The notes under the pieces are model-generated. The model saw only the letters and a program-made list of their open reading frames with translations, had not been told where the DNA came from and searched no databases. A stretch of DNA of 64,000 nucleotides from Armatimonadota bacterium (lineage in GTDB: Bacteria; Armatimonadota; UBA10988): NCBI GenBank assembly GCA_016235455.1, contig JACRKZ010000166.1, forward strand, positions 12,237 to 76,236. Reading direction: 5' to 3'. The number at the start of each line of letters is the position of its first letter. Position 1 is the stretch's first letter. Of the stretch, positions 18,927 through 50,297 are shown one piece after another. The position numbers and the translations under genes are program-made.

Positions 18927-21695
18927 TTATTGCGCGTCGCGGCAGACGGTCGCGTCCGGCACCGCGCCGGGCATGTCGTCCCGCGGCTTGACGGCCAGTT
19001 GCTGCCGTACCGGCGCGAACACGGCCAGGATGGCCTGATAGTCCGGGTCACTGGTGCCCGCGAAGACTGCCTGACCGCACTTGCCGCTGCCGCCCTGGGC
19101 TTTGGCCAGCGGCGCGGCAGCGAAGCCGTTGAGTTCGGGCCGGTCGAGCCGGGTCCATACCGGCCGCGGCAGCGACTGCGCATGGCACGAGGCGCAGCGC
19201 CGCTGGCGTACGTCGGCCAGCACCTTGTCGAGCCCAGCGGGATAGATGCGGCGGCAGCCGACGGCCAGCGGGTAGGCGGTCTCGCTGGTGCCGTAGTAGG
19301 GCACGTTGAGGTCGATCCAGCTCAGGATGCGTTGCCGCTCGCCGGCCTCGAGCTTCACCCGGGCCTGGCCGTCGGCGCCGGCATGGCCGCCGATGACGAT
19401 GTCGGCCAGCCGGCTGCGCGGCGAGCCCCAGGCGCGCGGCGTGATCTCCAGGATGTTGGCCTCCTGGCCGTTGTAGGTGGGGATCCACGACGTGTATGGG
19501 TTGTCCAGCTCGCCCTCGCCGATGGACCGTCTCCCGCGCGCCAGCGTCTCATACGAGACGTTGAAGAAGTCGGTCTTGTCGCCGGCCAGATCGACCCCGC
19601 CCGCGGGCGCCACGCCGTCATGGCAACTCACACAATGCCGGTCCAGCACCGGCTGCACCACCGACGCGTAGTCGAAGCCGACGCCTTGGCCCCAGTCGGG
19701 AGGCGTGAGCGCCGCGGGAGGCGAGGCCAGCGCCGACGGTCGACGTGGCGGCGTGGTCGTCGTGCGCTGCTCGTGACAGCCGACGCAACCTTGCGTCTCG
19801 CCCGGCATGAGGTGGGTGAAGGTCCTCATGCGCTGGACGGCACGGCCTTCGGCGTCGAGCGCCATGAAGTAGATGGGTACGCCCGCGGGCACCTGGAAGT
19901 GCGCCGAGCCGTCGTCGGCCACGGGTGCGAAGCCCCAGACCTTCTTGCCCGCGTAGGTTGCGCCGCAGGAGATCACCGGGAACTGGAACCCGAAGGCGCG
20001 GTTGGCCACGTCGGTGCGGACCGGCTTCTCCATCTCCTGCACCACGGCGATGCGCTTCACCTCGCCGCGCTTCACCACTGGCTCCAACCCGCGATAGACG
20101 TCCTCGACGAACATCGTGGCCCACCCGCCCACGCCCGCCGACGCTGGTTCTGACAACTTCGTGGCGATGGCCGGCACCGCCCGCGCTCGCACCGGCGCGG
20201 CGTTGTGGAAGCCCATGCCGTCGCGCGGCGCGACCACCTCGGCTTCGCTGGTGCGGGCATAGTCGCGCAGCAGCACGGTGCCATCGCGCGACACCAGGTA
20301 CCACTGGTCGTCGAGCGGGTAGGGTGTGGCATAGGGCCCGCGGATGTGGTTGCCGCTGCCCTGGTCGACCTTGCCGGCATCGATCTCGGGCGTGAGGTTG
20401 GTCAGCGCGGCCTGGGTGTTGTCGCCGTAGCCACGGTCGATCAGCCCGATGGCGCCGCGAGCCGGGCCGTTGTGCGCGGTCAGCGTGCACAACACCTTGG
20501 TGCTGCCGGGCACCGCGCGAGCTTCCATGATGGTGGCGGGACTGAGCACGCGATTGCCCCAGAATCCGGCCAGACCCGTGCCGTCGGGACTGATGGTCCA
20601 CAGGCTCTGGATGGGGATGGCCGGCCGGTCGACGTATTCCCACCGGGAGTAGATGATACGCCCGTCGTTCAGCACGCTCGGCGTGAAGTCGTTGACCAGA
20701 TTGGCGCTCAGCCGACGCGCATCGCTGCCGTCGGCGTTCATCCTGAACAGCAGGCCGACGGGCGACACCCAGCAGTAAGCGAACCGGGCCGCGCGCGTGG
20801 ACAGGAAGGCGATGCCGCCATCCGGCAGCCAGCAGCCGTTGTAGTCATGCCAGCGGCCGGTGGTCAGTTGCCGGAGTCCGGTGCCGTCGGCGGCGACGGT
20901 CCACAGGTGATAGCCCTGGTCGGTGGCCTGGCGCCAACTGAAGAGGATGGTCCGCGCGTCGGGCGAGACGTCGCAGTCGAGGATCTGCCCCGCGCCGGCG
21001 TCGACCAGCCGTGTCATCGCACCGTCGGGCTCGCGCCGCCACAGGCCGCCGCCGGCCCGGAAGCCCTCGGTGTGGTAGGTGTAGACGTGGCTGGAATCGA
21101 TGGGGTAGCGCTGCACCATGACCAGCGGGTCGAGCTTGACCGGGAGTTCGGCCAGCGCCTTGACATCGAGCGTCGACTCGCCGGGCAGCGAGCGCTTGGG
21201 CGCCGGCGTGGCAAAGACCATGATCTCCGATGCGCCGGGGTTGGAGCCGCCATAGGAGCTGCCAAAGACGAAACGGAGCGACTTGGTGACCACTGGCTGG
21301 GCCAGCGTGATCCGCTGCGGGTCGCTGCGCTGCCGGAACTGGCCTGCAGCCAGTTCCTTACTGTCCGCGTCGAGCAGCCGATAGCCCTGCCAGGCTTCGG
21401 CCATCTCCCAGGCGTTGCGCGCGTAGTAGACCACCTCGGCCACGGTGACCGGCTCGGGCCAGGTCAGTGTGAACTCGGCGCCCTGCCGATGCGTGCTCCC
21501 GTTGACCGCCCAGGCCCGGCCGACGTCGTCGTGCGAGCCCGCGCCGGGAATGACGCCGTCGATGGCGCGGTCGGCGCCGTAGGTGTCGTTGAACGCCGAC
21601 GTGGCGGTCGCCGTGGCGTGACGAGCCAGGTTCTCGGGCATCTCGGCGGCGGTCAGGCCGCCGAGCGACAGCAGGCAAGCGATCAATGCGCGCAT
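18927..21695 (-). CDS. Secreted HzsA-related tri-haem c propeller protein with N-terminal discoidin (F5/8C, CBM32-like) domain
   Basis: Signal peptide; ENLARHATATA..AIDG..GASEIMV discoidin; WLPDGGIAFLSTR, DGRIIYSRWEYVDR; DGSAHFQVPAG..ALDAEGRAVQRMRTF..PGETQGCVGCH; CVSCH; CASCH. Confidence 0.85.
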   Translation of the reverse strand: MRALIACLLSLGGLTAAEMPENLARHATATATSAFNDTYGADRAIDGVIPGAGSHDDVGRAWAVNGSTHRQGAEFTLTWPEPVTVAEVVYYARNAWEMAEAWQGYRLLDADSKELAAGQFRQRSDPQRITLAQPVVTKSLRFVFGSSYGGSNPGASEIMVFATPAPKRSLPGESTLDVKALAELPVKLDPLVMVQRYPIDSSHVYTYHTEGFRAGGGLWRREPDGAMTRLVDAGAGQILDCDVSPDARTILFSWRQATDQGYHLWTVAADGTGLRQLTTGRWHDYNGCWLPDGGIAFLSTRAARFAYCWVSPVGLLFRMNADGSDARRLSANLVNDFTPSVLNDGRIIYSRWEYVDRPAIPIQSLWTISPDGTGLAGFWGNRVLSPATIMEARAVPGSTKVLCTLTAHNGPARGAIGLIDRGYGDNTQAALTNLTPEIDAGKVDQGSGNHIRGPYATPYPLDDQWYLVSRDGTVLLRDYARTSEAEVVAPRDGMGFHNAAPVRARAVPAIATKLSEPASAGVGGWATMFVEDVYRGLEPVVKRGEVKRIAVVQEMEKPVRTDVANRAFGFQFPVISCGATYAGKKVWGFAPVADDGSAHFQVPAGVPIYFMALDAEGRAVQRMRTFTHLMPGETQGCVGCHEQRTTTTPPRRPSALASPPAALTPPDWGQGVGFDYASVVQPVLDRHCVSCHDGVAPAGGVDLAGDKTDFFNVSYETLARGRRSIGEGELDNPYTSWIPTYNGQEANILEITPRAWGSPRSRLADIVIGGHAGADGQARVKLEAGERQRILSWIDLNVPYYGTSETAYPLAVGCRRIYPAGLDKVLADVRQRRCASCHAQSLPRPVWTRLDRPELNGFAAAPLAKAQGGSGKCGQAVFAGTSDPDYQAILAVFAPVRQQLAVKPRDDMPGAVPDATVCRDAQ

Positions 21696-21744
21696 GAGGG
21701 TGTCCTCAGACGAGAGTGTGGCAGAGCGCGGTGGCAGACGCAAG

Positions 21745-24198
21745 CTACTTGCCGGCAATGCGCCGTATTGCTTCCACTTCGGCCGGGTCAAACGCTGTCC
21801 CATCGGCCCGCAGCAGGTCGTGATGCCAGACCTTGGGCGCCGGGTCACCGGGCTTGGAGCCCCACGGCATGTAGGTCTGCGTGCGCCCGGCGACCAAGCC
21901 CCAGCAGTAGCTGCCCACCTGCTTCTCCCGCAGCAGTGCCAGATCCGTGGCCCAGCGACTGCCCAGCACACGCGACATCCATTCGGTGCAGAGCAACGGC
22001 CGGCCCTGTGCGGCGAACTCATCGATGGCCGACCGCAGGGCCTGGACGTCGCCGTAACGGTGGAAGGAGACCACGTCCGACAAGGCCAGCATGGTCCTGG
22101 CGCAGCCCGCGGGGCCACCCCACGGCCCGGCGGTCAACGGCTGGCTCGGCGCGGCGGCGCGGGCCCAGCCGAAGGTCGCGGCCAAGAAGGGTTCGCTGCC
22201 ATCGCCATGCGCGCAGTTGCCCGGCTCGTTGTACAGGTCCCAGGCGACAATACGCGGGTCGTCGGCGTGGGTGCCTACCAGATCCTTGACAAACGCCTCG
22301 GGCCCCGCCCATCGGGTCCTGTCGGCGACGATCCCGTGGCCGGGGCTGGGCACCCAGCCGCTGTTGTGGACCCCAGTCACGGGGTCGGGCTGCGGGCCGA
22401 CGCTCGGCTCTCGCCCGGCGAACGCGCAGTCGTCGAACAGCACGGGCATCACGCTCTGGCCATGCTTCGCGGCGAGTGCCAGGAAAGCCTCGAAGCGCGC
22501 GCGGAAGCCAGCGGGGTCGTCGGCCCACACCACGTAGTTGAGGAACACGCGCAGCGAGTTGAAGCCCAGACCTTGGGCCCAGCCGAGTTCGCGGTCCATG
22601 GTGGGCTGATCGAAGGTGGCGGCCTGCCACATCTCGACATCGTTCACGGCGCTGGATGGCAGGTAGTTGCAGCCGACCAGCCAGCCCGCGCGCGCCGACC
22701 ACTGCGCGGCGCGTTCCGTTGTCCACCGCGTCGCGGGCAGCGGCTCGGCGGCCACCAACTGCACGTAGGCATCGGTCGCATCGGCCCGCTTGTCGCCGGT
22801 CACGCTAACCACGAGCTCATGCTGGCCAGGGGCCAGCCCGGTCAGCCGGTGACGCTGGTTCCAGGCCACGGTGGGGCCAAAGGTGTCCAGCGGAGGCAGA
22901 TCGCGGCCGTCGAGCGCGAGGCCGGCGATGCCGCAGTCCGGGCCGGACTTGTGCACCAGAGCCAGGCCGGTTCCCGCAAACCTGATCCTGGCTGTGCCAC
23001 CGGCCTCGCGGCAGAAATGCAGCGCGCCACCCAACGGGCCGCTGCCTGTCCAGCGTGTCCAGCCGTCGCCGAAGGCGATGCCGGCGTCGTCGTGCGCGGG
23101 CAGGCCAGGCCTGGTCTGCATCTGGCGGTAGTCGCGGTGGGCGAAGTCGAGCGCGGTGTCGTGCGTCAGCGCTCGAATGGCCGTGTGCTCCGCCGGGTCG
23201 TACGGTTGACCATCACGGTGGTACAGGTCGTGAAACCAGACGGCGGGTTGCGGGGCGCCGCGCTTGCTCGACCAGCCGAACTGGCATTGGGTGCGGCCGT
23301 TGACCAGGCCCCAACTCAGGCAACCGACACCTTCGTCGCGCAGCAGCGACAGGTCGGTCGACCAGACGCTGCCGAGGGGCCTCGCCATCCATTCGGTGCA
23401 GACCACCGGCCGGCCGTGGCGCTTGAAGCGCTCGATGGCCGAACGCAGGCCGTCGCGGTTGCCGTAACAGTGAAAGCTGACGATGTCCGACAGCTCGATC
23501 TGCCGCTGGCTGAGGGCGGCCGACGCACCCCATGGCCCCATGGTCAACGGCTGGCTTGGCCGCGACTCGCGTGCCCAGGTGAAGGTGGCCTCAACCAGGG
23601 GCAGGCTGCGGTCACCCAGGCCGCTGTTGCCCGGCTCGTTGTACAGGTCCCACAGCACGACGCGGGGGTCCTGGCCGAAGCGGCCGACCATGGCCCGCAC
23701 GTACTTCTCGAGGTCGGGCCAGGCGCCGCGGTCCTCGACGGCGCGGAGGCCAGGACTCGGTGTCCAGCTCGGCAGGATCATGCCGGGGACAGGTTCGCGT
23801 TGCGGGCCGAGGTGGGGCTCGGTGACCGGTGGGTCGCCAAAGCTGCAGTCGTCGAACAGCACGGGCATGACACGGATGTGGTGCCGGTTGGCTATTGCCA
23901 GAAACTGGTCGAAGCGCCGCTCGGTGCCAGCCGGGTCATCGTGCCACACCAGGTACTGCACAAACACCCGCACAACATTGAAGCCGAGCGTCTGCGCCCA
24001 GCCCAGCTCGCGGTCGATGGTCACGGCGTCGAAGGTGGCAGCCGACCAGAATTCGGTCGTGTTGGCCGCGCTCGAAGGCACGTAGTTGCAGCCCACCAGC
24101 CACGGCTGCGCGCGATACCACTCCCAGGCGCGTTCGGCCGGCCAGGTGGTCGGACCAGCCAGCAGGCTGGACATGATCAGGGGCACGGCGGGGGTCAT
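21745..24198 (-). CDS. Tandem double GH5-like glycoside hydrolase with a central beta-sandwich module
   Basis: Two copies of GCNYxP / WDLYNEP / CTEWM / WGLVxGRTQ, separated by a roughly 130-aa domain. Confidence 0.87.
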   Translation of the reverse strand: MTPAVPLIMSSLLAGPTTWPAERAWEWYRAQPWLVGCNYVPSSAANTTEFWSAATFDAVTIDRELGWAQTLGFNVVRVFVQYLVWHDDPAGTERRFDQFLAIANRHHIRVMPVLFDDCSFGDPPVTEPHLGPQREPVPGMILPSWTPSPGLRAVEDRGAWPDLEKYVRAMVGRFGQDPRVVLWDLYNEPGNSGLGDRSLPLVEATFTWARESRPSQPLTMGPWGASAALSQRQIELSDIVSFHCYGNRDGLRSAIERFKRHGRPVVCTEWMARPLGSVWSTDLSLLRDEGVGCLSWGLVNGRTQCQFGWSSKRGAPQPAVWFHDLYHRDGQPYDPAEHTAIRALTHDTALDFAHRDYRQMQTRPGLPAHDDAGIAFGDGWTRWTGSGPLGGALHFCREAGGTARIRFAGTGLALVHKSGPDCGIAGLALDGRDLPPLDTFGPTVAWNQRHRLTGLAPGQHELVVSVTGDKRADATDAYVQLVAAEPLPATRWTTERAAQWSARAGWLVGCNYLPSSAVNDVEMWQAATFDQPTMDRELGWAQGLGFNSLRVFLNYVVWADDPAGFRARFEAFLALAAKHGQSVMPVLFDDCAFAGREPSVGPQPDPVTGVHNSGWVPSPGHGIVADRTRWAGPEAFVKDLVGTHADDPRIVAWDLYNEPGNCAHGDGSEPFLAATFGWARAAAPSQPLTAGPWGGPAGCARTMLALSDVVSFHRYGDVQALRSAIDEFAAQGRPLLCTEWMSRVLGSRWATDLALLREKQVGSYCWGLVAGRTQTYMPWGSKPGDPAPKVWHHDLLRADGTAFDPAEVEAIRRIAGK

Positions 24199-24253
24199 GG
24201 CGGCGGCTCCATTGCGCTGCCAGTTCGAGCGCGGGCGCGCGCCTCCTTCACGC

Positions 24254-24282
24254 TTGACGCCACGCCCCTCCTTGCCTAGAGT
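24254..24282 (+). promoter_or_regulatory. Sigma70-type promoter
   Basis: TTGACG-N17-TAGAGT, upstream of GGAGG and ATG 24306. Confidence 0.55.
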
Positions 24283-24305
24283 TGAGGGTGTCAGGGAGGT
24301 CAGCC

Positions 24306-25760
24306 ATGGTCAGGCGTACCGCTGTGCTGGTGGTTGGAGGTCTGCTGCTGCTCGGCGCGGCCCGGGCACAGGTGGTGTTCCCGCAGTTCGCCTTCCCGGC
24401 CAAAGTCGCGGGCGGGCATATCGTCTTCAGTCGCCTGATGCCCGTCAAACTGGCGGCTGGGGGGCTCACGGCCGACACCATCGTCTCCAAGCTGTTCGTC
24501 ATGAACGGCGACGGCACGAACCCGCAGCCGTTCCTGGTCACGGCCGACCTGACCCAGTTCAAGGAGCCGCGCTGGTCGCCGCAGTTCGACCGGCTGGCCT
24601 TCAGCTCCAACTTCGCCAGCTCGCGCTCGGCCTGCATGACCGACATTTTCGAGGCACGAGCCGGCGGCGTGGTGCGTCGCGTGACCGGCAACGACCTGGT
24701 CGGCGCCGCGCCCATCGGCTATGGGTCGGTGGTCGGCCGCGTTGACCCGCAGTTCAAGGACGACCCCACGGCTGTGCATAAGGGCGGCGAGATCAGCGTC
24801 ACCGCCCAGGGCATGGACGGCGCGGTGGTGCATCCGTCGCTGACCGACAACAGCTTCACGCTGCCCCGCGTCGCCGCGGGCGACACGGTGTGGGTCAAGG
24901 TCTGGGTCACGGAGCGGCTGGGCACGCTGACCATGATCAAGGTGCGCCCCGGCGAGGTCACCAACATCGGCACGGTCAAGCTCAACGAGGGCACGTTCAC
25001 CGCCTCCAAGCCCAGCCTCTCGGTGGGCGGGCAGCATGTGGTCGGCATGGGCGGGCTGACTCAGGTGGCGTTGACCGACAACCCCATCGGCGGGGTGATC
25101 GGCGAGACGGTGCCGGGCTTCCAGGCGGGCAAGCAGAAGACGATCAGCGGCGCCGAGAGCATTTGTGTCTACGAAGGCCGCACCGGCGCGCTGCTGGGCA
25201 GTATCGACCTGGGCAAGCTGGGCTACGAGCAGGCCAAGGAACCGGCGCTGTCGCCAGACGGCACGGCCATCGCGTGCGCCTGGGGCAAGATGACGCAGGA
25301 GAACCTGGCGCTGGTGCCCGTGGCCAGCGTGCTGGCCAATGCTCCCGCGCCGAAGGTGCTGGTGCCGGGCCAGATGCTCATGTTCCAGCCCGGTGCGCCG
25401 ATGATCGGCTGTGGCGGGCCGGTCTGGTCGCCCGACGGCAAGCGCCTCGCCTTCACCCGCACCATCGTCATCGGCGATGGTACGGTCAGCGCGGGCATCT
25501 GGGTGGTCAACGTCGACGGCTCCGGCCTGAAGGAAGTGGCCGCCCAAGGGCTTGAACACCTGTGCTGTCAGCCCTGCTTCTCGCCTGATGGCACGAAGCT
25601 GGCGTTCACGGCGCTGACCGGCCGGCGGGGCCCGCTGAAGGTCGAGCAGCTCATCGCATCGCAGTTTGGTCTGGACATCTTCAGCGTGGATCTGGCCTCG
25701 GGCAAGCAGACGCGGCTCACGCAGGATGGCGCGAGCTGCGAGCCGGCCTGGGGGCCGTAG
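24306..25760 (+). CDS. Secreted TolB-like/PD40 protein with an inserted small beta-sandwich
   Basis: EPRWSP, PALSPDG, PVWSPDGKRLAF, PCFSPDGTKLAF and EPAWGP. Confidence 0.8.
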   Translation: MVRRTAVLVVGGLLLLGAARAQVVFPQFAFPAKVAGGHIVFSRLMPVKLAAGGLTADTIVSKLFVMNGDGTNPQPFLVTADLTQFKEPRWSPQFDRLAFSSNFASSRSACMTDIFEARAGGVVRRVTGNDLVGAAPIGYGSVVGRVDPQFKDDPTAVHKGGEISVTAQGMDGAVVHPSLTDNSFTLPRVAAGDTVWVKVWVTERLGTLTMIKVRPGEVTNIGTVKLNEGTFTASKPSLSVGGQHVVGMGGLTQVALTDNPIGGVIGETVPGFQAGKQKTISGAESICVYEGRTGALLGSIDLGKLGYEQAKEPALSPDGTAIACAWGKMTQENLALVPVASVLANAPAPKVLVPGQMLMFQPGAPMIGCGGPVWSPDGKRLAFTRTIVIGDGTVSAGIWVVNVDGSGLKEVAAQGLEHLCCQPCFSPDGTKLAFTALTGRRGPLKVEQLIASQFGLDIFSVDLASGKQTRLTQDGASCEPAWGP

Positions 25761-25799
25761 CCGCGAGCGCCAGGCGGCCCCGTCCGACGCCGTCGCGTG

Positions 25800-25808: not shown

Positions 25809-25841
25809 GACCGACGATCTCATCCGACGGCGGAGTGGCTC

Positions 25842-27359: not shown

Positions 27360-27363
27360 TACC

Positions 27364-40257: not shown

Positions 40258-40438
40258 GGCAGGCTCCCACGGCCGAGCCACAGGCCTCGGCGCGTCCCAC
40301 ATCGGTCGATGCCACCGTGTTCGTCGCGCTGGCCGCCGCACCTCCGCCACGCGCAGGAGCCAGCCGCCGCGCCGCGAAGCATGGGGCGCCGCGCCGCGAC
40401 AGCGGCCGGCGCCACAGGCGATGAGTCGGCGCCCAGCG

Positions 40439-40516: not shown

Positions 40517-42559
40517 ATGAAGCATCCTGCCATCAAGCGTATCGCTATCGTGCTGCTCCTGGTCGGCGTCGGGTTGGTGGTCAACCGCGTGCGTCATCCG
40601 CGCGAGGATCCCACGCTGGTCAAGGGCAGCGGCACGGTCGAAGCCACGGAGATTGGTGTGGCCTCGCAGGCCACGGGTCGCATCGACAAGCTGTTGGTGG
40701 CCGAAGGCGACGCCGTGACCGAGGGTCAGGTGCTGGCTCAGCTGAGCGCCGATGCGCTGAGCGCCGACCACGAGCGCACGGAGGCGGCGGCCTTCTCGGC
40801 GCGCATGAGGCTGGCCAACCTGGCGCGCGGCAGCCGCTCGGAGGAAGTCCGGGCCCGCGCCGCCGCGTTGTCGGAGGCGCTGGCCAACGTGCAGGGCGCG
40901 CGGCGACAGATGGCCAATGCGCGGGATGCCTACCAGCGCCCGCCCGACCTGCGGGCCGCTTACGACACGGCGCACACGCAGGTGCGGGCCAGCGGCGCGC
41001 AGCTCGACCAGGCGCGAGCCCAGTTGGCCGAGGCCAAGGCCGGCGCGCGGCCCGAGGAGCTGAGCGCTACGCGCGCGGCGCGCGCCGCCGCAGGTTCGGC
41101 GGCCGTGGGTGCCGGCGCGGCGGTGGACCAGGCTGACGCTGCCCGGCGCGCGGCGGCCGCGCAGTTGGCCGAGGCCGACGCCGCGATCAAGGGCGCCCAG
41201 GCCGATCTGGCCCAAGCCCAGGAGATTCTGGCCCAGCGTAGCGCCGCCACGACGCAAGTCGCCGCGGCGACGTTGCAGCTGGAGAGCGCGCAGGCGGCGC
41301 AGGCGGCGGCGCAGGCGCGCCGCGACACCGTGGAGTCGCCGCCGCGACCCGACCGGCGCGACCAGGCCGAGCAGGCCCTGAGCCAGGCCCGCGCGGCGCA
41401 GGCGTTGGCTGAGGCCGAGGCCAAGCGCCAGCGCAACCTGTTCGAGCAAGGCGCGATCAGCCGGCGCATTCTGGACCAGGCCAGCACGACGCTGGACCAG
41501 GCCCGCGCCGCCACGAAGTCGGCCGAAGCCGGGCTGCGCGATCTCGATGCCGGTGCGCGCGACAGCGAACGCCGTGAGGCCAGCGCCTCGCTGACCGGCG
41601 CGCAGGCGGGCGTACGCGGCGCCGAGGCGGCCCTGGCCAACGCCAAGCACGAGCAGGCTATCGCCGTGGCCGCCGCGCAGCAGGCGGTCGAGCGCGCCAA
41701 GGCGACGCTGGCCGGGGCCAACGAACGCCGCGCGCAGGCGGTGGCCAACCAGGACCAGTCGGCCGACCGACTGCGCGGCTCACGCGCCACGGCCGAGCAG
41801 GCCAAGGCCCAGAGCGAGCAAAGCCAGGCCGCGCTGGACCTGGCGTTGGCCGGCACGCGCGCCGAGCGTCTGGCGCAGAGCAGCGCCGCCGTGCGCACCG
41901 CCGAGGCCCAGAGCGCCGGCGCCCAGGTGGCGTTGAGCAATGCCGAGCGGGCCTACCAGGACCGCTTCACCTATCGCGCCAACCTGCTGGCCGCGGAGCA
42001 GTCGGCCAGCGCCGCGGCGGCACGGGTCGACCAGGCCCAGGCGCAACTGGACCTGGCGCTCGCGGGCAACACCTCCGAGGTGATCGAAGCGGCGCGCGGT
42101 GAGCTGAACCAGGCCACCGCCGCGGAGAAGACGGCCAAGGCCCGGCTGGACGACACGGTCATCCGCGCGCCGGCCACGGGCACGGTGAGCGAGCTGATCC
42201 TGCGCCAGGGCGAGGCCTGTACGCCGGGCTCCGTCGTGGTGCGCATGCTGGACCTGGCGCACTTGTGGGTGCGGGTCTATCTGCCGACGACGGCGTTCAC
42301 CAAGGTCAAGCGCGGTCAGGACGTCGACGTGCTGGCGGACGCCTTCGCCAAGCCCGTGCGTGGCCAGGCCAGCCGCCGGTTCGCCGGCCGGGTGCTGACC
42401 GTCAGCGACCAGGCCGAGTTCACGCCGAAGAACGCGCAGACCGTGGAGGAGCGGGTCAAGCAGGTGTTCTGGGTCAAGATCGATGTGGGCGACGGCCAAG
42501 GGTTGCTCAAGCCGGGCATTCCCGTGGACGTGCGGCTGCGCGTGGGTCAGGGCGGCTGA
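40517..42559 (+). CDS. HlyD/YbhG-like membrane fusion protein with an unusually long coiled coil
   Basis: N-terminal TM; SGTVEA..GRIDKLLVAEGDAV lipoyl half; about 490 aa Ala/Gln-rich helix; IRAPATGTV..GE; AEFTPKNAQTVEERVKQVF. Confidence 0.9.
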   Translation: MKHPAIKRIAIVLLLVGVGLVVNRVRHPREDPTLVKGSGTVEATEIGVASQATGRIDKLLVAEGDAVTEGQVLAQLSADALSADHERTEAAAFSARMRLANLARGSRSEEVRARAAALSEALANVQGARRQMANARDAYQRPPDLRAAYDTAHTQVRASGAQLDQARAQLAEAKAGARPEELSATRAARAAAGSAAVGAGAAVDQADAARRAAAAQLAEADAAIKGAQADLAQAQEILAQRSAATTQVAAATLQLESAQAAQAAAQARRDTVESPPRPDRRDQAEQALSQARAAQALAEAEAKRQRNLFEQGAISRRILDQASTTLDQARAATKSAEAGLRDLDAGARDSERREASASLTGAQAGVRGAEAALANAKHEQAIAVAAAQQAVERAKATLAGANERRAQAVANQDQSADRLRGSRATAEQAKAQSEQSQAALDLALAGTRAERLAQSSAAVRTAEAQSAGAQVALSNAERAYQDRFTYRANLLAAEQSASAAAARVDQAQAQLDLALAGNTSEVIEAARGELNQATAAEKTAKARLDDTVIRAPATGTVSELILRQGEACTPGSVVVRMLDLAHLWVRVYLPTTAFTKVKRGQDVDVLADAFAKPVRGQASRRFAGRVLTVSDQAEFTPKNAQTVEERVKQVFWVKIDVGDGQGLLKPGIPVDVRLRVGQGG

Positions 42560-43482
42560 TGCAGGCCGTCAGCGTCACCGGGCTCAGTCGCCACTACGGC
42601 ACCACGCGGGCCGTGGACGACGTGAGCTTCGAGGTGGCCAGCGGCGAGATCTTCGGCATCGTCGGCCCTGACGGCGCCGGCAAGACCACGCTCATGCGGC
42701 TGCTGGCGGGCATCGTCACGCCCACGTCCGGCGGCGCCATGGTCGCCGGGTGCGACGTGGTGGCCGATCCCGAGGCCGTCAAGCAGCGCATCGGCTACCT
42801 GTCCCAGGTCTTCTCGCTGTACCGTGATCTGACGATCGGAGAGAACATCGACTTCGTGGCCGACCTCTACAGCGAGGACCTGGTCCGCGCGGGCGAAGCC
42901 AAGGCCCGCATGTTGGCCATGACCGGCCTGGCGCCGTTCGTCGACCGCCAGGCGGGCCGGTTGTCGGGCGGCATGAAACAGAAGCTGGGTCTGATGTGCG
43001 CGCTGATTCACCGGCCCACGGTTCTGCTGCTGGATGAGCCGACGACGGGTGTCGACCCGCTCTCACGGCGCGACTTCTGGCGCATTCTGGCCGACCTGCC
43101 GAGCCAGGGCGTGACCATTGTGCTCAGCTCGCCGTACATGGACGAAGCGTCACGCTGCCATCGGCTGGCGCTCATGGACCATGGTCGCGTGCTGGCGGTG
43201 GGCAGCGCCGCCGAGCTGGCCGCGCGGGTCAGCGGCCAGATGGTCGAGGTGGTCACACCCGACCCGCGTGGCGCGCTGCGCGTGCTGGAGGGCCTGCCGG
43301 GCCTGCTCAGCGCCACGCCGTTTGGCGATGCGCTGCATGTGCGGCTGGACGGCGACGACGCCGTGGCGCGGGTGAGCGCGGTGTTGGCCGGCGCCGGCGT
43401 GGTGTTCAGTGAAGCCCGCCCGGCCGAGGCCAGCCTGGAAGACGCCTTCATCGACCTCGTGGGCCGGGGGGAGACGGCATGA
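42559..43482 (+). CDS. ABC ATP-binding protein (YbhF N-half-like)
   Basis: GPDGAGKTT, LSGGMKQKL and LDEPTTGVDP; TGATG coupling with the upstream gene. Confidence 0.93.
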   Translation: MQAVSVTGLSRHYGTTRAVDDVSFEVASGEIFGIVGPDGAGKTTLMRLLAGIVTPTSGGAMVAGCDVVADPEAVKQRIGYLSQVFSLYRDLTIGENIDFVADLYSEDLVRAGEAKARMLAMTGLAPFVDRQAGRLSGGMKQKLGLMCALIHRPTVLLLDEPTTGVDPLSRRDFWRILADLPSQGVTIVLSSPYMDEASRCHRLALMDHGRVLAVGSAAELAARVSGQMVEVVTPDPRGALRVLEGLPGLLSATPFGDALHVRLDGDDAVARVSAVLAGAGVVFSEARPAEASLEDAFIDLVGRGETA

Positions 43483-44420
43483 GCGAGCCAGCCCCGGCCA
43501 TCGTGGTGCGCGACCTGGTCAAGCGCTTCGGCGCCTTCGCCGCGGTGGACCACGTCTCGCTGAGCGTCGCGCGCGGCGAGGTATTCGGCTTCCTCGGGCC
43601 CAACGGCTGCGGCAAGTCGACCACCATCCGCATGATCTGCGGGCTGCTGGGGCCGACCAGCGGCAGCATCGAGGTGGCCGGCCTGGATGTGCGCACCCAT
43701 GCCGAGCAGATCCGCGCGCGGGTGGGGTACGTGGCGCAGTTCTTCAACCTGTACCGCGACCTGACGGTCTATGAGAACCTGACCTTCTACGGCGGGGTCT
43801 ACGGTGTGCCGCGCGCCGAGCTGCGGTCGCGCGTCGAGCACTGGTGTGAGCGGCTAGACCTGAGCCGATACGGACGGGTGCTGTCGGGCGAGCTGTCGAC
43901 CGGCGTGCAGCGCAGCCTCGCGCTGGCCGCGGCGGTGCTGCACGAGCCGGCGGTGCTGCTGCTCGACGAGCCCACCAGCGGCGTTGACCCCATTGCGCGG
44001 CGTGCCTTCTTCGATGTCATCGGCGAACTGGCCGACGGCGGCACCAGCATCCTGGTCACCACGCACGTCATGGACGAAGCGGACCGCTGCGGGCGGCTGG
44101 CGCTGATGGATCGCGGCAAGCTGGTGGCCGAAGGCACGCCCAGTGAGATCCGCGCCATGGGCGGCACCGACATCTGGCAGGTGTCGGCCGACCCGCCCAG
44201 CCGCGCGCTGACGCTGGCCGAGCAGCATCCGGGCGTCGACGCGCCGGCGCTGTTTGGCACGCGGCTGCAGTTCAGGGTGAGCGACGGCACCACCGCGGTT
44301 GCCGTGGCGCAGTGGCTGCGCGACCAGGGCGTGACCTGCGATGAGCCGCGGCCGGTGCGCGCCACCATCGAGCACGCCTTCCTGCAACTGCTGCGCCGGG
44401 ACGACGGAGACAACGAATGA
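43479..44420 (+). CDS. ABC ATP-binding protein (YbhF C-half-like)
   Basis: [25 protein letters not shown] and TTHVMDEA. Confidence 0.93.
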
Positions 44421-45547
44421 GGCGCACCCGCGCCATCGCGCGCAAGGAGTGGATCCACATCCTGCGGGACAAGCGCAGCCTGGCGGCGGTGCTGACGCTG
44501 CCCGTCGTGCTGGTGCTGCTCTATGGGTACGCGGTCAACTTCGACCTCAACGCGCTGTCGTTTGCCCTGGTGGACGACGACCACAGCGCCGCCTCGCGCC
44601 ACTTGGCCGAGAACCTGAGCGGGGTGCGGCCGTTCGTCTTCAAGGGCACGCTGGCCAACGCCGCCGAGGCCGATAGCGTTTTCCAGCGCGGCATCGCACG
44701 CGTGGTGGTGGTCGTGCCGGCGGGCTTCGAGCGGCTGCTCGACAGCGGCCGGCCGTCGCCGGTGCAGGTGCTCGTCGATGGCTCCGAAGGCACCATCGCC
44801 ACCATTGCCCAGACCTACACGGTCGGCGCGATCAGTACGCTCGGCCGCACACTGACCAAGGCACAGGCCCAAGGTCGCGGCATCTCCAAGCGGTTGCTCG
44901 AGCCGGCCATCGATGTGCGCGTGCGCGTGCTGTACAACCCCGACCTGCTCAGCCGCATGTTCCTCGTGCCGGGCCTCATCGGCATCATCCTGATGATGCT
45001 CGCGGCACTGCTCACCTCGGGCATCATCGTGCGCGAGCGGGAGAGCGGCACGTTTGAGCTGCTGGCGGCCAGCCCCATCGGGCCGATGGAACTGCTGGTG
45101 GGCAAGATGCTGCCCTACCTGATCATCGGCGCGGCCGATGTGGTGGTGGCGGTGGGCATGGGCTGGGCGGTGTTCGGTGTGGAGCCCAAGGGCAGCCTGC
45201 TGCTCCTCTTCGCACTGTCGCTGGTCTACGTGCTGGCCAGCTCGGCCATTGGGCTGTTCTTCTCGTGCGTGGCGCGCAGCCAGCAGACGGCGATGATGAT
45301 GGCCTTCGTGGCCACCGTCATCCCGACCATGATCCTCTCGGGCTTCGCCTTCCCGGTGCGCAACATCCCGCTGGTGCTGCAGGGCCTGTCGCAGATGCTG
45401 CCGGCCACGCACTACATCGCGATCGCCCGCGGCATCATCCTCAAAGGCATCGGCCTGGGACCCATCTGGTGGCATGGCCTGGCCCTGGCGCTGCTGACCG
45501 TGTTCTGGATGCGGCTGGCGCTGCGCAAGTTCAGCAAGACGCTCTGA
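44417..45547 (+). CDS. ABC-2 permease (YbhS-like)
   Basis: RKEWIHILRD, YNPDL..FLVPG and RERESGTFELL. Confidence 0.92.
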   Translation: MRRTRAIARKEWIHILRDKRSLAAVLTLPVVLVLLYGYAVNFDLNALSFALVDDDHSAASRHLAENLSGVRPFVFKGTLANAAEADSVFQRGIARVVVVVPAGFERLLDSGRPSPVQVLVDGSEGTIATIAQTYTVGAISTLGRTLTKAQAQGRGISKRLLEPAIDVRVRVLYNPDLLSRMFLVPGLIGIILMMLAALLTSGIIVRERESGTFELLAASPIGPMELLVGKMLPYLIIGAADVVVAVGMGWAVFGVEPKGSLLLLFALSLVYVLASSAIGLFFSCVARSQQTAMMMAFVATVIPTMILSGFAFPVRNIPLVLQGLSQMLPATHYIAIARGIILKGIGLGPIWWHGLALALLTVFWMRLALRKFSKTL

Positions 45548-45560
45548 GGACGGAGACACC

Positions 45561-46679
45561 ATGCGGTTGCGCTATCTGCTGGTCAAGGAGCTGCTCCAGA
45601 TGCGGCGTAACCCGGCCATGCTGCGCATGGCTGTGTTCATGCCCATCATGCAGACGCTGCTGCTGTCCTTCGCGGCCAACATGGACGTGACCAACGTGCC
45701 GCTGACCATCTGGGACGCCGACCGCAGCCCGCAGAGCCGGGCGCTGGTGCAGATGGTCGGCTCCTCCAACGCCTTTGTCCTGAAGGGCTACCGCATGTCG
45801 CCCGAGGAGCTGGAGCACGACCTGGACTCGGCGCGGGCCTCGCTGTGTCTGGTCATCCCCGCCGGATTCGCGCGCGACGTGGAGCGTGGCGAGGCGACGC
45901 TGCAGGTGCTGGTCGACGGCACGGAATCCACGACCACGACCGTGGCCGCGGCCTACATCGCGCAGATGGCGGGCGACTTTGGCGCGCAGGTGCAGCGCAA
46001 GCTCGTGGCGCGGCGTGGCTTGCACCTCAACCTGGGCCAGATCACGCCCGTGCCGCGCGTGCTCTACAACCCCGACGCGCGCACGCTGTGGTTCATGGCG
46101 CCGGCCATCATGGCGCTCGTGCTGACCACGCTCATGCAGAACATCACCGCCCTGTCCATCGCTCGTGAGCGCGAACTGGGCACGCTGGAGCAGTTGGTGA
46201 TGACGCCGGTGCGGCCCGCGGAGATCCTGCTGGGCAAGCTGGTGCCCGTGGGGGTGATTGGTCTGTTCGACGCCGGCCTGGTCAGTGTCATCGTGGTGCA
46301 TGCGCTGCATGTGCCGTTTCGCGGCAGCGTGGCGCTGCTGGCCCTGGCCACGATCATCTTCTTGTTCGCCGTGCTCGGGTTGGGGTTGCTCGTGTCCACC
46401 GTGTCGCACAATCAGCAGCAGGCGCAGCTGACCAACTTCTTCCTGTCGTACCCCTCGATGCTGCTGTCGGGCTTCATCTTCCCCGTGTGGAACCTGCCGG
46501 CCCCGCTGCAGCCGGTCAGTCGGCTGGTGCCGATGACGCATTTCCTGGAGATCACGCGCGGCGTGTTTCTACGGGGCTCCGACGCCTCCGCGCTGGCCGG
46601 CCATCTGGCGTGGATGGCCGGCCTGGCGACTGCATTCTTCGTCGTGGGCGCCTTGCGCTTCCACAAGCGACTCGACTGA
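45561..46679 (+). CDS. ABC-2 permease (YbhR-like)
   Basis: KELLQMRRN, YNP, RERELGTLEQLVMTP and LLSGFIFP. Confidence 0.92.
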   Translation: MRLRYLLVKELLQMRRNPAMLRMAVFMPIMQTLLLSFAANMDVTNVPLTIWDADRSPQSRALVQMVGSSNAFVLKGYRMSPEELEHDLDSARASLCLVIPAGFARDVERGEATLQVLVDGTESTTTTVAAAYIAQMAGDFGAQVQRKLVARRGLHLNLGQITPVPRVLYNPDARTLWFMAPAIMALVLTTLMQNITALSIARERELGTLEQLVMTPVRPAEILLGKLVPVGVIGLFDAGLVSVIVVHALHVPFRGSVALLALATIIFLFAVLGLGLLVSTVSHNQQQAQLTNFFLSYPSMLLSGFIFPVWNLPAPLQPVSRLVPMTHFLEITRGVFLRGSDASALAGHLAWMAGLATAFFVVGALRFHKRLD

Positions 46680-46748
46680 GCCCTCACCCGCGCCGCGCTG
46701 GCCGGCCGCTCGATCGCTCGGCGGGCCGGGCAGAACGCACACGTTGGC

Positions 46749-47207: not shown

Positions 47208-47345
47208 GTGGGATCCTCCTACCCAGGCCGACAGGGGCACGCTACGGTCCCCGCAGGTCGGTATTATTGCCCACGCACCGCGGATTACGGGATACGTTGA
47301 ATTCACATAGGCGACATGTTCGGCCAGGAGCCGACTCGTCGGCGT

Positions 47346-50297
47346 TTAGGTGGTGGGTTGCCACCAAAGCGACTCCCAGTAGCGTCGCTCAACTGCGTAT
47401 GGATCAATGGGCTCGCCATCGGTTCGTCCGGGCGCCAGGATGCCATAGCGTTGCATCTCGCGAACCCAGGCTGCACGGGGCTGGAAACCCGGCATGTCGA
47501 ACCGCCGGATGGTGTTGAGCTGAGTGGAGGCCGCCTGCACCATGGCCAGGATGGCCTGGTAGTCGGTGTCGTCGGTGCTGGGCAGTACCGCCTGGCCGCA
47601 GCGTTGCCAGCCGCCCGCCGCCTTGGCCAGCGGCGCCAGCAGCAGCGCCGACTGGGCCGGTTCGGTGAGGTCGTAGAGCAAGTGGCGCGCGAAGCGACGG
47701 CGCGGGTCGTTGGGGCCCATGTCCTCCCACGGGGGGCCGGTGATCTCGTCGGTGGCCGATTGGGGCAAGGCCTTGGCGCCGGTGTGGCAGCTGTTGCAGC
47801 GGCGCCCGAGCGCTGCCATGCCGGCCTTCGTGACGGGCTGCTGCAGGTCGGCGCGGTCCAGGTTGTTCTGGGCGTAGCCGCCGATCATGCCGCAACCCAG
47901 CGCGGCGTAAGTGCCTGGGTGCGGTGCGCCGACCTCTATCCAGAGGCGCACGGTACGTCGTTCCTGGTCGGTCAGGCGCACGCCGTGGTGGGCCTCGGTG
48001 AGCTTGGCCATGAGCGGGCTGGCGCTGCTGCCGAGCTTGCGCGGCGGGTAGTTGCTGATCGGCCGGTTGCGTCCGTCGGCCACCTGACTGCGCGCGGTCA
48101 GCGCGAAGTAGCTGAGGGTGAACAGCGGGCCGCGATGGTTGATCAGGTTGACGTCGCCGTCACGGCGCTGCGGGTTGTGGCAACTCACGCAGTGGCGGTC
48201 CCAGATGGGTTGGATGTCGCGCGGGTAGTCCAGCACGTCGGGCACGTCGCTGATCGGCGTGATGGCCGACGGCGCGCGCATCACGGCCGCGGGCATGGCC
48301 GTCGCCGTCCGTGGCGGTGCCTTGGTGCGGTGCTCGTGGCAGCCGACGCAGCCCAACGTCTCGCCCGGCTGCACGGTGGCGAAGCTCTGCATGCGCTTGA
48401 CGGCCAGATCGTCCTGGTCGAGTGCGACGAAGATCAGGCTGCGTAGCGCCGGCGCCTCGAAGTAGGCGGAGCCGTCGGGCTCGACGGGCACGGTGCCCAG
48501 CACGCGTTCCAGGGTGAACGTGCCGCCGTAGCTCAACGGCTCCATGCCGCCGGTGAAGTTGACCGGCTTGGGCAGGCTTTCGAGCACCAGCAGCTTCTTG
48601 ATCTCGCCGCGCGTCACGCCCTCCATGTTGCGGCCCAGGTGCACGTCCTGGAGCATGAAGCGGCCGGTAGTGCGGGCCAGTTCGGCGCGCGCGGGAATGA
48701 CCCGCTCGCGCCCGCGGACGATCACCGGACGCGGCTCGTTGAGCCAGTAGCCTGCCTGCTGGTCGGCCGCGGGCAAGGCGAACAACTCGGCGGTGCGGCC
48801 GCGCTCGTCGCACAGCATCAGCGAACTGCCGCGCGCGGCCATGATGGTGTCTTCGCCAAACGCCCACGGGTCGCGGAAGTCATCGCCGCGGGTCAGCGCG
48901 CGGGCCGAGCGGTTCTGGTCGGGCCCGGCCTTGGGGTCGATGATGCCGATGCGACCCTCGTGTTCGGTCTTGCCGTGGCCGGGCGAGAAGCTGGCCACGA
49001 TCTTGTGGCTGCCGGGGATGGGTTTGGCGTCGATGAACACGTCGCCGGCGCGCTGGTTGCCGAACCACACCTCCTGCACCGTGCCGTCGGGGTAGGCCGA
49101 CCACAGGTGGTGGTAGTGCACCTGGCTGCGATCGACATACTCCCAGCGCGTGTAGAGAATGCGGCCGTCGGGCATGACCCAGGGCGTGTTGTCGTGCTCG
49201 TTGTTGCTCGATATCGGCCGCAGATTCGTGCCGTCGGCATCGCAGCGGTAGAGAATCGCCACCTGCGTCAGCCAGCAGTTCACCCACCGCTTGCAGCGCG
49301 TGGAGACGAACACGATGCCGCCGTCGGGCAGGTAGGCGGGTTCGATATCGTCCCAGTCGCCGGTGGTGATCGGGCGCACGGAACGATCGGCCAACGTCAT
49401 CTCGTACAGGTTGTAGTGGTCGCTGGTGCCGCGGCGCCAGCTGAACAGCATCTTCTGGCCGTCGTAGCTGACCTGCGGGTCGCGCAGGCCGCCCTGCGGG
49501 TCGTCCAGCAGCGTCTCCAGCGCCTTGGTGCGCAGATTGAGCCGGCACAGCCGCCCGCCAGGTCGGTAGAGCTTGGCCGCGCTGTCGGCCGCGTAGTACG
49601 AGAAGTTGGCGTACCAGTGCTCGCCGACAGGCTTGCGTAGTGCAAAGACCACCGAGTCCACGGGCGCCATGGTGCCCGTCAGCGCGCGCTCCACCAGATC
49701 CCCCGAGCCGCCGTTGACGGCCGGCGCCGCCTGCTCGGCGCTCAGCAGCAGGTAGTCGTAGATGATCCAACTGCCGTCGTCCATCGTTACGGTCAGTTCG
49801 TTCGTCCCGGCCTTGGCCCCGCCGGCCGCCACGGGCACGGCCAGGTCGCTAGGCTCGCTGAGTAGGAATGGATCGAAGGCCAGTTCGGTGCCGTTCTTCG
49901 CCGGCAGGCGCTGCTCGAGCAGCTTGTTGCCGTTGATCGCGATGCGGATCAGGCTCGGTTCCCAGCTGGCCAGGTAGCCCAGGTGCAGCCACAGCGGTCT
50001 GGTCGGCGCGTCCTTCAAATTGAAGCGCAGCGTGAAGGTCTGCGGCTTCCCGCCGGCCCAGCTATCGTGCGTGCTGGGGTGGATGTAGGGCCAATCGGTC
50101 AGCTTGCTCTGGCCGAGCGTGACCACCACCGGCTGCCGGTACGTTTCCGCGTAGCCGGTCCAGGTGCGGTCACACAGCCCAAACTCCGCGCACGACCCGT
50201 CGGGCGTGCCCAGTTGCATGAGCGGCGCCTCCGCGGCCACCAGCCGCCCAGCGATCAGCACGACCAGCCACCAACGCAGTGATCTCAACCAATTCAT
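47346..50297 (-). CDS. Secreted HzsA-related tri-haem c propeller protein with N-terminal PL4 domain-III-like (CBM-like) module
   Basis: Signal peptide; QLGTPDGSCAEF..DWPYIHP..DSWAGG..GSWIIYDYL; YLPDGGIVFVSTR; DGRILYTRWEYVDR; LGTVPVEPDGSAYF..AVKRMQSF..PGETLGCVGCH; CVSCH; CNSCH. Confidence 0.87.
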   Translation of the reverse strand: MNWLRSLRWWLVVLIAGRLVAAEAPLMQLGTPDGSCAEFGLCDRTWTGYAETYRQPVVVTLGQSKLTDWPYIHPSTHDSWAGGKPQTFTLRFNLKDAPTRPLWLHLGYLASWEPSLIRIAINGNKLLEQRLPAKNGTELAFDPFLLSEPSDLAVPVAAGGAKAGTNELTVTMDDGSWIIYDYLLLSAEQAAPAVNGGSGDLVERALTGTMAPVDSVVFALRKPVGEHWYANFSYYAADSAAKLYRPGGRLCRLNLRTKALETLLDDPQGGLRDPQVSYDGQKMLFSWRRGTSDHYNLYEMTLADRSVRPITTGDWDDIEPAYLPDGGIVFVSTRCKRWVNCWLTQVAILYRCDADGTNLRPISSNNEHDNTPWVMPDGRILYTRWEYVDRSQVHYHHLWSAYPDGTVQEVWFGNQRAGDVFIDAKPIPGSHKIVASFSPGHGKTEHEGRIGIIDPKAGPDQNRSARALTRGDDFRDPWAFGEDTIMAARGSSLMLCDERGRTAELFALPAADQQAGYWLNEPRPVIVRGRERVIPARAELARTTGRFMLQDVHLGRNMEGVTRGEIKKLLVLESLPKPVNFTGGMEPLSYGGTFTLERVLGTVPVEPDGSAYFEAPALRSLIFVALDQDDLAVKRMQSFATVQPGETLGCVGCHEHRTKAPPRTATAMPAAVMRAPSAITPISDVPDVLDYPRDIQPIWDRHCVSCHNPQRRDGDVNLINHRGPLFTLSYFALTARSQVADGRNRPISNYPPRKLGSSASPLMAKLTEAHHGVRLTDQERRTVRLWIEVGAPHPGTYAALGCGMIGGYAQNNLDRADLQQPVTKAGMAALGRRCNSCHTGAKALPQSATDEITGPPWEDMGPNDPRRRFARHLLYDLTEPAQSALLLAPLAKAAGGWQRCGQAVLPSTDDTDYQAILAMVQAASTQLNTIRRFDMPGFQPRAAWVREMQRYGILAPGRTDGEPIDPYAVERRYWESLWWQPTT

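Follow-up and report, generated by a model that had tools for sequence, protein, structure and literature searches.

The DNA analysed in this study is a stretch of 64,000 nucleotides (nt) from an Armatimonadota bacterium (G000:C145:12237-76236; hereafter the window), which has a G+C content of approximately 0.69 and belongs to a draft genome of 6.5 Mb in 185 contigs. It carries two genes, here called A and B, whose products are related to the alpha subunit (HzsA) of hydrazine synthase (HZS). A first-pass annotation of the window had proposed that both genes encode secreted tri-haem enzymes with swappable carbohydrate-binding modules (CBMs), which would act on glycans among glycoside hydrolases (GHs). 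In this study, we describe the following: (i) the architecture of A and B and their likeness to HzsA; (ii) the paralogue family to which they belong; and (iii) the relationship between this family and a second gene resembling the HZS subunits beta and gamma (HzsBC-like).

Architecture of genes A and B

Forty-three genes were predicted in the window using a simple caller based on third-position GC. A and B are both real, long open reading frames (ORFs) on the minus strand, with a third-position GC of 0.90. Gene A (18927..21695, with its ATG at 21695) encodes an HzsA-like, alpha-type protein of 922 amino acids (aa), as determined by its ORF, Pfam matches, an AlphaFold2 model and a fold match. 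The order of its parts is signal leader, DUF7402 module, propeller, HZS_alpha middle domain, haem-2 domain and third-haem tail, all on the minus strand. The signal-type leader (about residues 1-17; 21645..21695) was read by eye as a hydrophobic stretch followed by small residues. The beta-sandwich N-module (residues 22-161; 21213..21632) matched Pfam DUF7402 with 51 bits against a cut-off of 27. A TolB-type beta-propeller containing Cys308 (residues about 186-505; 20181..21140) was recognised from TolB chains that aligned over model residues 175-505 with Z 26-27.6. The HZS_alpha middle domain (residues 544-642; 19770..20066; Pfam 85.5 bits, cut-off 26.6) ends with haem motif 1, a CxxCH at residues 637-641 (19773-19787). 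Haem motif 2 (residues 688-692; 19620-19634) is located in a domain homologous to that of HzsA haem alpha-II (residues 660-799; 19299..19718), which aligned to residues 640-766 of the HzsA structure 5c2v_A. An extra C-terminal domain (residues 800-922; 18930..19298) extends past the sequence alignment to HzsA, and contains haem motif 3 (residues 834-838; 19182-19196) and a D-M-P-G motif.

Gene B (47346..50297, minus strand) encodes an HzsA-like, alpha-type protein of 983 aa, as determined by its ORF, Pfam matches and CxxCH count. Its order is signal leader, CBM-like module of the PL4-domain-III type, propeller, HZS_alpha domain, haem-2 domain and third-haem tail, again on the minus strand. The CBM-like N-module (PF14683; residues 26-184; 49746..50222) scored 36.3 bits against a cut-off of 27 and covered 158 of the 160 profile positions; this type of module also exists as a free-standing protein of 297 aa, encoded at another place in the genome. 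The HZS_alpha middle domain (residues 564-655; 48333..48608) scored 70.3 bits against the cut-off of 26.6. Haem motifs 1, 2 and 3 are found at 48336-48350, 48177-48191 and 47784-47798, with CxxCH at residues 650, 703 and 834, respectively. Pfam PD40 is present in both proteins, and both begin with a hydrophobic signal-type leader as read by eye.

The leader, propeller, HzsA-middle-like domain, three CxxCH motifs and shared tail that had been claimed for both genes were all recovered by ORF check, reading by eye, Pfam and phmmer, including HZS_alpha matches well above the cut-off. The N-modules had been described as discoidin-like in A and PL4-domain-III-like in B. The latter description was confirmed; for the former, the family matched above its cut-off is DUF7402, and over the same stretch of A the discoidin family F5_F8_type_C (PF00754) stayed below its gathering score, with 24.0 bits against 28.2. 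Homology extends to the conserved C-terminal tail, a domain of approximately 120 aa, which phmmer found to be common only to the six paralogues of the genome with three motifs. In A and B, it comprises the CxxCH and a downstream Met-Pro-Gly motif, whose Met may be an axial haem ligand. A Cytochrome_CBB3 stretch inside the tail was found in one paralogue only (on contig C87; residues 890-921, 24.1 bits, cut-off 27), and the sub-threshold Cytochrome_CBB3 stretches of A and B (19 and 23.2 bits) are located at haem 2, outside the tail. Based on leader and motifs, A and B are predicted to be exported c-type haem proteins with haem attached at the CxxCH motifs. Cytochrome c assembly genes are represented in the genome by 3 matches to PF01578.

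Likeness to HzsA and differences at key residues

The AlphaFold2 model of A, built from 64 sequences, had a predicted local distance difference test score (pLDDT) of 90.5 and a predicted template modelling score (pTM) of 0.86. HzsA of Kuenenia (kuste2861; PDB 5C2V chain A) was top-ranked in a Foldseek search with this model (E 1.4e-28, 824 columns). VIA-align superposed model residues 186-908 on chain residues 54-805, with Z 32.1 and a root-mean-square deviation (rmsd) of 3.4 over 580 residues; the TolB propellers mentioned above were the runners-up. A family profile matched 5c2v_A with E 7e-42 over the propeller, middle and haem alpha-II domains, which exceeds chance by far, and the sequence identity between A and HzsA was 16-20%. 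A and HzsA share domain order and fold over the whole core, and the haem-1 and haem-2 CxxCH motifs line up with their HzsA counterparts. The relationship to the Kuenenia alpha subunit, earlier noticed in the middle domain, therefore extends beyond it, and the two proteins are full-length structural homologues.

The family differs from HzsA in having N- or C-terminal modules of the lectin/CBM type or of the formylglycine-generating-enzyme (FGE) type and, in A and B, a third haem domain, all of which are located outside the part that aligns by sequence to 5c2v_A. The NCBIfam hydrazine_alpha equivalog NF052339 scored 44 bits for A and 46.7 bits for B against a cut-off of 800. A and B are therefore not HzsA orthologues.

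For the comparison of single residues, HzsA numbering and roles were taken from section 8 of Hagglund et al. 2025 (PMC12758564). CxxCH motifs 1 and 2 were invariant across the 64 sequences (C637, C640 and H641 for motif 1), and so was Cys308 in the propeller. Also invariant were Arg351, Tyr354 and Asp371, which likewise belong to the propeller, and Met623, which belongs to the middle domain (A numbering); these five residues outside the haem motifs are candidate active-site residues, as judged from their conservation. His771 of A was nearly invariant and is one position off the distal His of HzsA. At haem alpha-I of HzsA, Tyr591 ligates the iron, and the CxxCH His and Cys303 bind zinc (PMC12758564, section 8). 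The position four residues after the haem-1 His is Thr in both A and B and Tyr in neither, which fits the gap reported at the HzsA Tyr position in non-anammox homologues (PMC12758564). Haem 1 of A and B is probably His-ligated, because no Tyr is present at the proximal-ligand position of HzsA. A and B resemble the non-anammox HzsA/HzsBC pairs of that paper, which are described there as keeping the haem alpha-I site and losing HZS-specific residues.

Twenty-six paralogues with shuffled modules

The HZS_alpha profile PF18582 matched 26 places in the genome, and phmmer with A and B recovered 26 full-length paralogues of 801-1398 aa. Of these, 6 contain three CxxCH motifs, 19 contain two and 1 contains one. 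The designation tri-haem thus holds for A, B and 4 further paralogues, and fails for the other 20 of the 26. The contig of the window carries a third HzsA-like paralogue approximately 4 kb upstream of the window start (G000:C145:4946-8527; locus L031). It has 1193 aa, DUF7402 at residues 163-300 and two CxxCH motifs, giving three copies within 58 kb.

The modules appended to the core were identified by scanning every one of the 26 paralogues with Pfam. DUF7402 was present in 4 paralogues (one of these matches being sub-threshold and C-terminal), F5_F8_type_C in 3, Laminin_G_3 in 5, NPCBM in 2, the CBM-like module in 1 (B itself) and Bac_rhamnosid_N in 1. In this way, a lectin/CBM-type module was found on 16 of the 26 paralogues. 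A C-terminal FGE-sulfatase domain was present in 4 paralogues, one of which also has NPCBM; these are L040, L032, L045 and L047, on contigs C167, C151, C77 and C169, respectively. A Mala_s_1-like region and HEAT repeats were each found in 1 paralogue, and 7 paralogues had no recognised extra module.

In a maximum-likelihood tree of the core, B was sister to a Laminin_G_3 paralogue, a DUF7402 paralogue was sister to an F5_F8_type_C paralogue, and the four FGE paralogues formed a single clade, each with support of 100/100. Because sister paralogues differ in their module, the modules have been shuffled on related cores. The proposal of swappable modules, which had been guessed from two copies, is borne out by these sister pairs and by the genome-wide count.

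An HzsBC-like partner gene

Synteny and flanking ORFs were analysed in a set of 80 related loci. Clustering of the flanking ORFs revealed a protein of 650 aa, consisting of a beta-propeller followed by CCP_MauG and cytochrome c matches, within 10 kb in 7 of the 80 loci from other phyla. A profile of this partner was searched against the whole proteome with hmmsearch and matched two genes. The full-length gene (C169:42709-44571) encodes 620 aa with two CxxCH motifs and a signal-type leader, and its product matched HZS gamma with 9.6e-26 and HZS beta with 4.7e-25. The shortened gene (C183:6570-8252; locus L041) encodes 560 aa, without the C-terminal part bearing the second haem motif. A distance of 121 nt separates it from an F5_F8_type_C paralogue downstream on the same strand, beyond which comes a 3-keto-disaccharide hydrolase gene; a sulfatase gene is divergent. 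The system therefore resembles HZS in having an alpha-type protein with a partner homologous to HzsB plus HzsC. Pfam scans covered 28 of the 43 genes called in the window, A and B included, and revealed no HzsB/C- or CCP-like gene there; the two genes recovered from the whole proteome both belong to other contigs. The earlier statement that an hzsB/hzsC partner is absent is consequently true of the window within this scope, and does not hold for the genome. In this respect A and B are unlike hzsA, which is encoded beside hzsB/hzsC.

The partner follows the family across genomes. Among 41 relatives, full-length partner matches (E 5.5e-71 or better) were present in exactly the 8 genomes with PF18582, and five other genomes matched the CCP part of the partner only. 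PF18582 was present in 18 of 151 genomes of the phylum. At a threshold of E 1e-40 or better, 16 of these 18 had the partner, compared with 0 of the remaining 133; the 16 genomes are related and so are not independent, though they span 10 families. For 17 of the 21 partner matches, a PF18582 match was located no more than approximately 4.5 kb away, and at least one such pair was present in 14 of the 16 genomes. The number of matches per genome was 1-26 for the alpha type and 1-2 for the partner.

Six adjacent alpha/partner pairs were fetched (L150-L155) and annotated by similarity to the proteins of this genome. The alpha-type protein of L153 is 52% identical to A over the full length, including the DUF7402 module and the third-haem tail, and its stop codon overlaps the start of the partner. 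The other partner-adjacent alpha-type proteins bear F5_F8_type_C, FGE or C45-type modules. These pairs indicate that module-bearing alpha-type proteins share operons with the partner. The FGE fusion adjoins HzsBC-like genes in the genomes G089 and G004. A complex prediction for residues 186-922 of A and the gamma-like domain (362-620) of the full-length partner gave a score of 0.00 in both runs; it was made without controls and with the beta-like propeller left out, and carries no weight on either side of the question of binding.

The full-length HzsBC-like gene is followed directly downstream by a gene for a protein of 350 aa (L149:11670-12722; G000:C169:44669-45721), with no signal leader and with a C-terminal Rid/L-PSP domain. 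Among its Atlas neighbours, FkbO_Hyg5-like_N, a chorismatase-type domain, is found on 24% and 14% of members. Homologues of this protein adjoin the HzsBC-like gene in L150, L152, L154 and L130, and weakly in L151. Judging from this gene order, the Rid/FkbO-like protein may be a third conserved member of the system.

Distribution and literature

A homologue search with A, in which 8000 candidates were scored, yielded 3231 proteins at E 0.001 or better. They came from Verrucomicrobiota and Planctomycetota and were named 'hypothetical', 'discoidin domain-containing' or 'HzsA-related protein'; the closest homologues carry names of Verrucomicrobiota. Many of the close homologues contain PF26549, a Pfam family more recent than the library used. 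Residues 520-800 of A, searched against 1.84 billion sequences, matched 3702 cluster representatives at E 0.001, 2144 at 1e-10 and 434 at 1e-30. A scan of species-representative genomes yielded at least 598 stretches, distributed over Planctomycetota, Verrucomicrobiota, Armatimonadota, Lentisphaerota, Kiritimatiellia, Hydrogenedentota and others. Among 14 well-known control genomes, PF18582 was present in Bacteroides thetaiotaomicron only.

Several aspects of this family are already known: the family itself, its pairing with a beta-gamma-like gene and the NCBI name 'HzsA-related protein'. Hagglund et al. 2025 described co-localised alpha and beta-gamma homologues in non-anammox bacteria, suggested that they form one complex, and reported no homologue with an experimentally confirmed function (PMC12758564). 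The first-pass annotation had likewise known of no assigned function for HzsA-related proteins, and none was found in the literature. In the pairs of that paper (clades I-IV), an alpha and a fused beta-gamma gene are co-localised, in several loci with alpha before beta-gamma. The C183 paralogue and the L153 relative are likewise co-localised with a beta-gamma-like gene, and A and B are not. As presented in the main text, the published cases are single co-localised pairs, with FG-GAP (CRTAC1 family) and ABC substrate-binding-protein genes nearby in clades I-III; the present genome differs in having 26 alpha-type copies, mostly partner-unlinked and fused to lectin/CBM-type modules. No paper linking the HZS_alpha family to carbohydrate-binding modules was found in the literature, and the word 'carbohydrate' is absent from the main text of PMC12758564, whose supplementary Tables S4-S7 may bear on this point. 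The 26-copy radiation, the systematic lectin/CBM-type and FGE fusions and the many-to-one ratio of alpha to partner were also not found in the literature, some of which those supplementary tables may hold.

Genomic neighbourhood and link to carbohydrate-active enzymes

A tandem double GH5-like gene (21745..24198, minus strand; 817 aa) is located 49 nt upstream of A on the same strand, as had been described, and no terminator-like site was found between the two. Its first half matched Pfam Cellulase/GH5 with 46.7 bits. The gene is an internal tandem duplication, with halves of approximately 408 aa each that are 56% identical. The pair of GH5-like gene and A is flanked by two PD40 proteins, at 13885-15369 (plus strand; 494 aa) and 24324-25760 (plus strand; 478 aa). 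These were not recovered by phmmer with A at E 1e-5 and are therefore not close kin of the propeller of the family.

The neighbour divergent from B (50418..53651, plus strand) encodes 1077 aa. Its divergent position was correctly noted earlier, and its supposed GH-like nature was not supported: a He_PIG Ig domain and a sub-threshold CBM_4_9 were recognised, and no sequence match was found in the PDB. Around B are also genes for a DUF3604 protein of 956 aa (54811-57681, minus strand), a GH32 (57843-59963, plus strand) and a GH106-like protein of 1078 aa (37066-40302, minus strand). An HlyD and ABC-2 transporter block (40550-46679) is placed between the GH106-like gene and B.

When 41 window proteins were compared with the 80 related loci using tblastn, the GH5 gene had no match, and neither did the PD40, GDSL, GFO/IDH/MocA, He_PIG and DUF3604 neighbours. 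Within the genome, blastp clustering of 167 neighbours showed that no partner gene recurs beside the 26 paralogues; only two groups formed, one with 8 small proteins and one with 4, which are likely DUF1559/N_methyl proteins and sulfatases. A total of 131 genes were located at most three genes away from a paralogue; Pfam families were tallied for 119 of them (12 window neighbours, scanned earlier, being left out) and for 108 of 120 control genes (the last two of 20 random regions being left out). This coarse tally, which covers the 25 commonest families only and in which single GH families are invisible, revealed no clear difference between neighbours and random genes. GFO_IDH_MocA was found in 3 of 119 neighbours and 5 of 108 controls, and AP_endonuc_2 in 3 and 2; sulfatase was found in 3 neighbours and was not among the families listed for the controls.

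Genome-wide, 53 sulfatase, 26 GH2_N, 15 GH5, 8 GH43 and 20 3-keto-disaccharide hydrolase genes were counted (122 in total), after rows in one open frame had been merged by hand (sulfatase from 55 to 53, GH2_N from 29 to 26 and 3keto-disac_hyd from 21 to 20). Nine of the 122 were located within 5 kb of a paralogue compared with 3.99 expected (binomial P 0.019, uncorrected), and 10 within 10 kb compared with 7.09 expected (P 0.17). Because the whole genome is rich in such genes, proximity to carbohydrate-active enzymes (CAZymes) says little. The placement of A and B among glycoside hydrolases, which the first-pass annotation had put forward, is thus weakly supported, with the GH5 gene unconserved in the related loci, a modest excess within 5 kb and similar tallies for neighbours and controls. 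Since the neighbourhood link is weak, the glycan link stands on the fused modules.

Discussion

Our tentative proposal is that the 26 paralogues, A and B among them, are alpha-type subunits of a non-anammox, HZS-like multihaem system of the periplasm, in which a shared beta-gamma-like partner would work with each of them, the N-module would tether the subunit to a glycan and the haems would serve as a relay. Each paralogue keeps the HzsA core of six-bladed propeller, CxxCH middle domain and second haem domain with its conserved His, and the N-module would bring this core to a particular glycan or glycoconjugate. The partner would be a fused HzsB-HzsC-like protein with a seven-bladed-propeller-type region and a di-haem domain of the CCP/MauG type. 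Because the partner is of this type, we propose that its gamma-like haem would activate a small oxidant, such as H2O2 or an N-oxide. Haem 1 of the alpha-type subunit, at the interface of propeller and middle domain, would next receive the reactive product or oxidising equivalents, and a group on the bound glycan would be transformed there. Haem 2, plus haem 3 in A and B, would relay electrons to or from a soluble carrier, the third small cytochrome domain being an added electron relay.

Several points weigh against this proposal. Twenty-five of the 26 paralogues, A and B included, are not adjacent to a beta-gamma-like gene, and the sole partner-adjacent paralogue sits by the shortened copy without the second haem motif. 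The single full-length partner would have to serve all 26 paralogues. Two genomes with PF18582, both fragmented, had no partner match (G076 with 760 contigs and G134 with 370 contigs). The third cytochrome domain could make A and B self-sufficient. The residues of HzsA chemistry are not kept, and the HZS reaction is therefore not transferable to this family. Glycan binding is predicted from Pfam family membership, which leaves out the 7 paralogues with no recognised module, and the link to CAZymes through the neighbourhood is weak.

In the main rival, which we consider rather unlikely, paralogues without a linked partner, including A and B, would act alone. As glycan-targeted haem redox enzymes, they would oxidise, demethylate or cleave a glycan-borne group at haem 1 and pass electrons via haems 2 and 3 to a soluble carrier, with no beta-gamma-like subunit. 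The distance of A, B and most other paralogues from any partner gene agrees with this, and so do the extra cytochrome-type domain found in 6 of the 26 paralogues only, the probable co-transcription of A with the double GH5 gene and the modest excess of glycan genes within 5 kb (9 against 3.99 expected). However, the 80 related loci do not preserve the GH5 adjacency, the presence of the family strictly follows that of the beta-gamma-like gene (16 of 18 against 0 of 133 genomes), and the L153 relative of A even overlaps its partner gene. Because the HzsBC-like gene co-occurs strictly with the family and is usually adjacent, a stand-alone enzyme is not the best reading. The earlier proposal of glycan-targeted enzymes is supported in part: the modules are swapped on HzsA cores, and the stand-alone mode is the less likely one.

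It is improbable that the paralogues are glycan-tethered electron carriers without catalysis, whose haems would carry electrons back and forth between the respiratory chain and enzymes of the periplasm that oxidise sugars or mature sulfatases (GFO/IDH/MocA, the 3-keto-glycoside pathway or the fused FGE domains). All haem motifs are canonical CxxCH, a conserved His is found beside the position of the HzsA distal His, and the invariant Met623 could be the sixth ligand of haem 1, all of which would suit a carrier. The FGE-sulfatase domain on four paralogues and the GFO_IDH_MocA, AP_endonuc_2 and 3keto-disac_hyd genes among the neighbours would supply its redox partners, but those neighbour families are equally common in random controls (GFO_IDH_MocA 3/119 against 5/108). 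Moreover, a conserved propeller of approximately 320 aa with invariant Cys, Arg, Tyr and Asp exceeds the needs of a carrier, and the link to a CCP/MauG-like partner suggests catalysis.

More improbable still is a nitrogen-oxide or hydroxylamine chemistry apart from glycan breakdown, for example the detoxification of NO or NH2OH, with the beta-sandwich modules as envelope anchors. HZS, which acts on NO, NH2OH and NH3, is the only characterised relative of both subunits according to PMC12758564, and the Rid-family/FkbO-like gene that adjoins the beta-gamma-like gene in several genomes would be in keeping with such chemistry, as Rid enzymes act on imines. Against it, 26 paralogues with six kinds of lectin-type module are typical of substrate targeting rather than detoxification, the HzsA-specific ligands are absent, and the genome is rich in sulfatases (53) and glycoside hydrolases. 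That A and B are genuine hydrazine synthase alpha subunits and that the organism makes hydrazine can be dismissed in spite of the HZS_alpha domain and the full-length fold match to 5c2v_A, as this identity is contradicted by the NF052339 scores (44 and 46.7 bits against 800), the missing Tyr four residues past the haem-1 His, the sequence identity of 16-20% to HzsA, the Verrucomicrobiota names of the closest homologues, and the 26 copies with lectin-type modules.

Compared with HzsA, the proposed system is distinguished by its 26 copies in an apparently non-anammox bacterium rich in glycan-degrading genes. A works-like analogy may be drawn with the fungal cellobiose dehydrogenase and the PQQ-dependent pyranose dehydrogenase (AA12-AA8-CBM1; PQQ, pyrroloquinoline quinone), for which no sequence or fold match was sought. 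These enzymes combine a CBM, a catalytic domain (a six-bladed propeller or a flavin domain) and a cytochrome domain on one exported chain, and use haem b with flavin adenine dinucleotide or PQQ. A and B are unlike them in having c-type haem motifs and a TolB-type propeller without a known cofactor. Galactose oxidase is a copper radical enzyme without haem. It has a discoidin-type N-module followed by a propeller (PDB 1GOF, 9G8H) and appeared in the Foldseek results of A with E down to 2e-17. TM-scores were low (0.17-0.24) and the rmsd was about 20 Å, and the likeness is therefore one of domain order only.

A bolder extension of the proposal, which we consider unlikely to hold in full, is that one beta-gamma-like subunit would be the common catalytic or oxidant-activating partner for up to 26 interchangeable, glycan-aimed alpha-type subunits. 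Such a system would perform haem-c-based oxidative modification or cleavage of polysaccharides, in a role comparable to that of copper lytic polysaccharide monooxygenases and from the same stock as hydrazine synthase.

Conclusions

Hydrazine synthase is the signature enzyme of anammox. In the genome described here, the alpha type has expanded to 26 copies, mostly fused to CBM-type modules, and the partner, which follows the family strictly across genomes, has stayed at one or two. The results provide a concrete, testable picture of the candidate partner, modules and invariant residues, for a family whose members number in the thousands (at E 1e-10 or better, 2144 cluster representatives). For a knockout, the most tractable organism would be Bacteroides thetaiotaomicron. 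Should the reaction prove to act on glycans, the family would constitute a new haem-c-based enzyme class for polysaccharide breakdown, and would reveal the ancestral activity from which hydrazine synthase was recruited.

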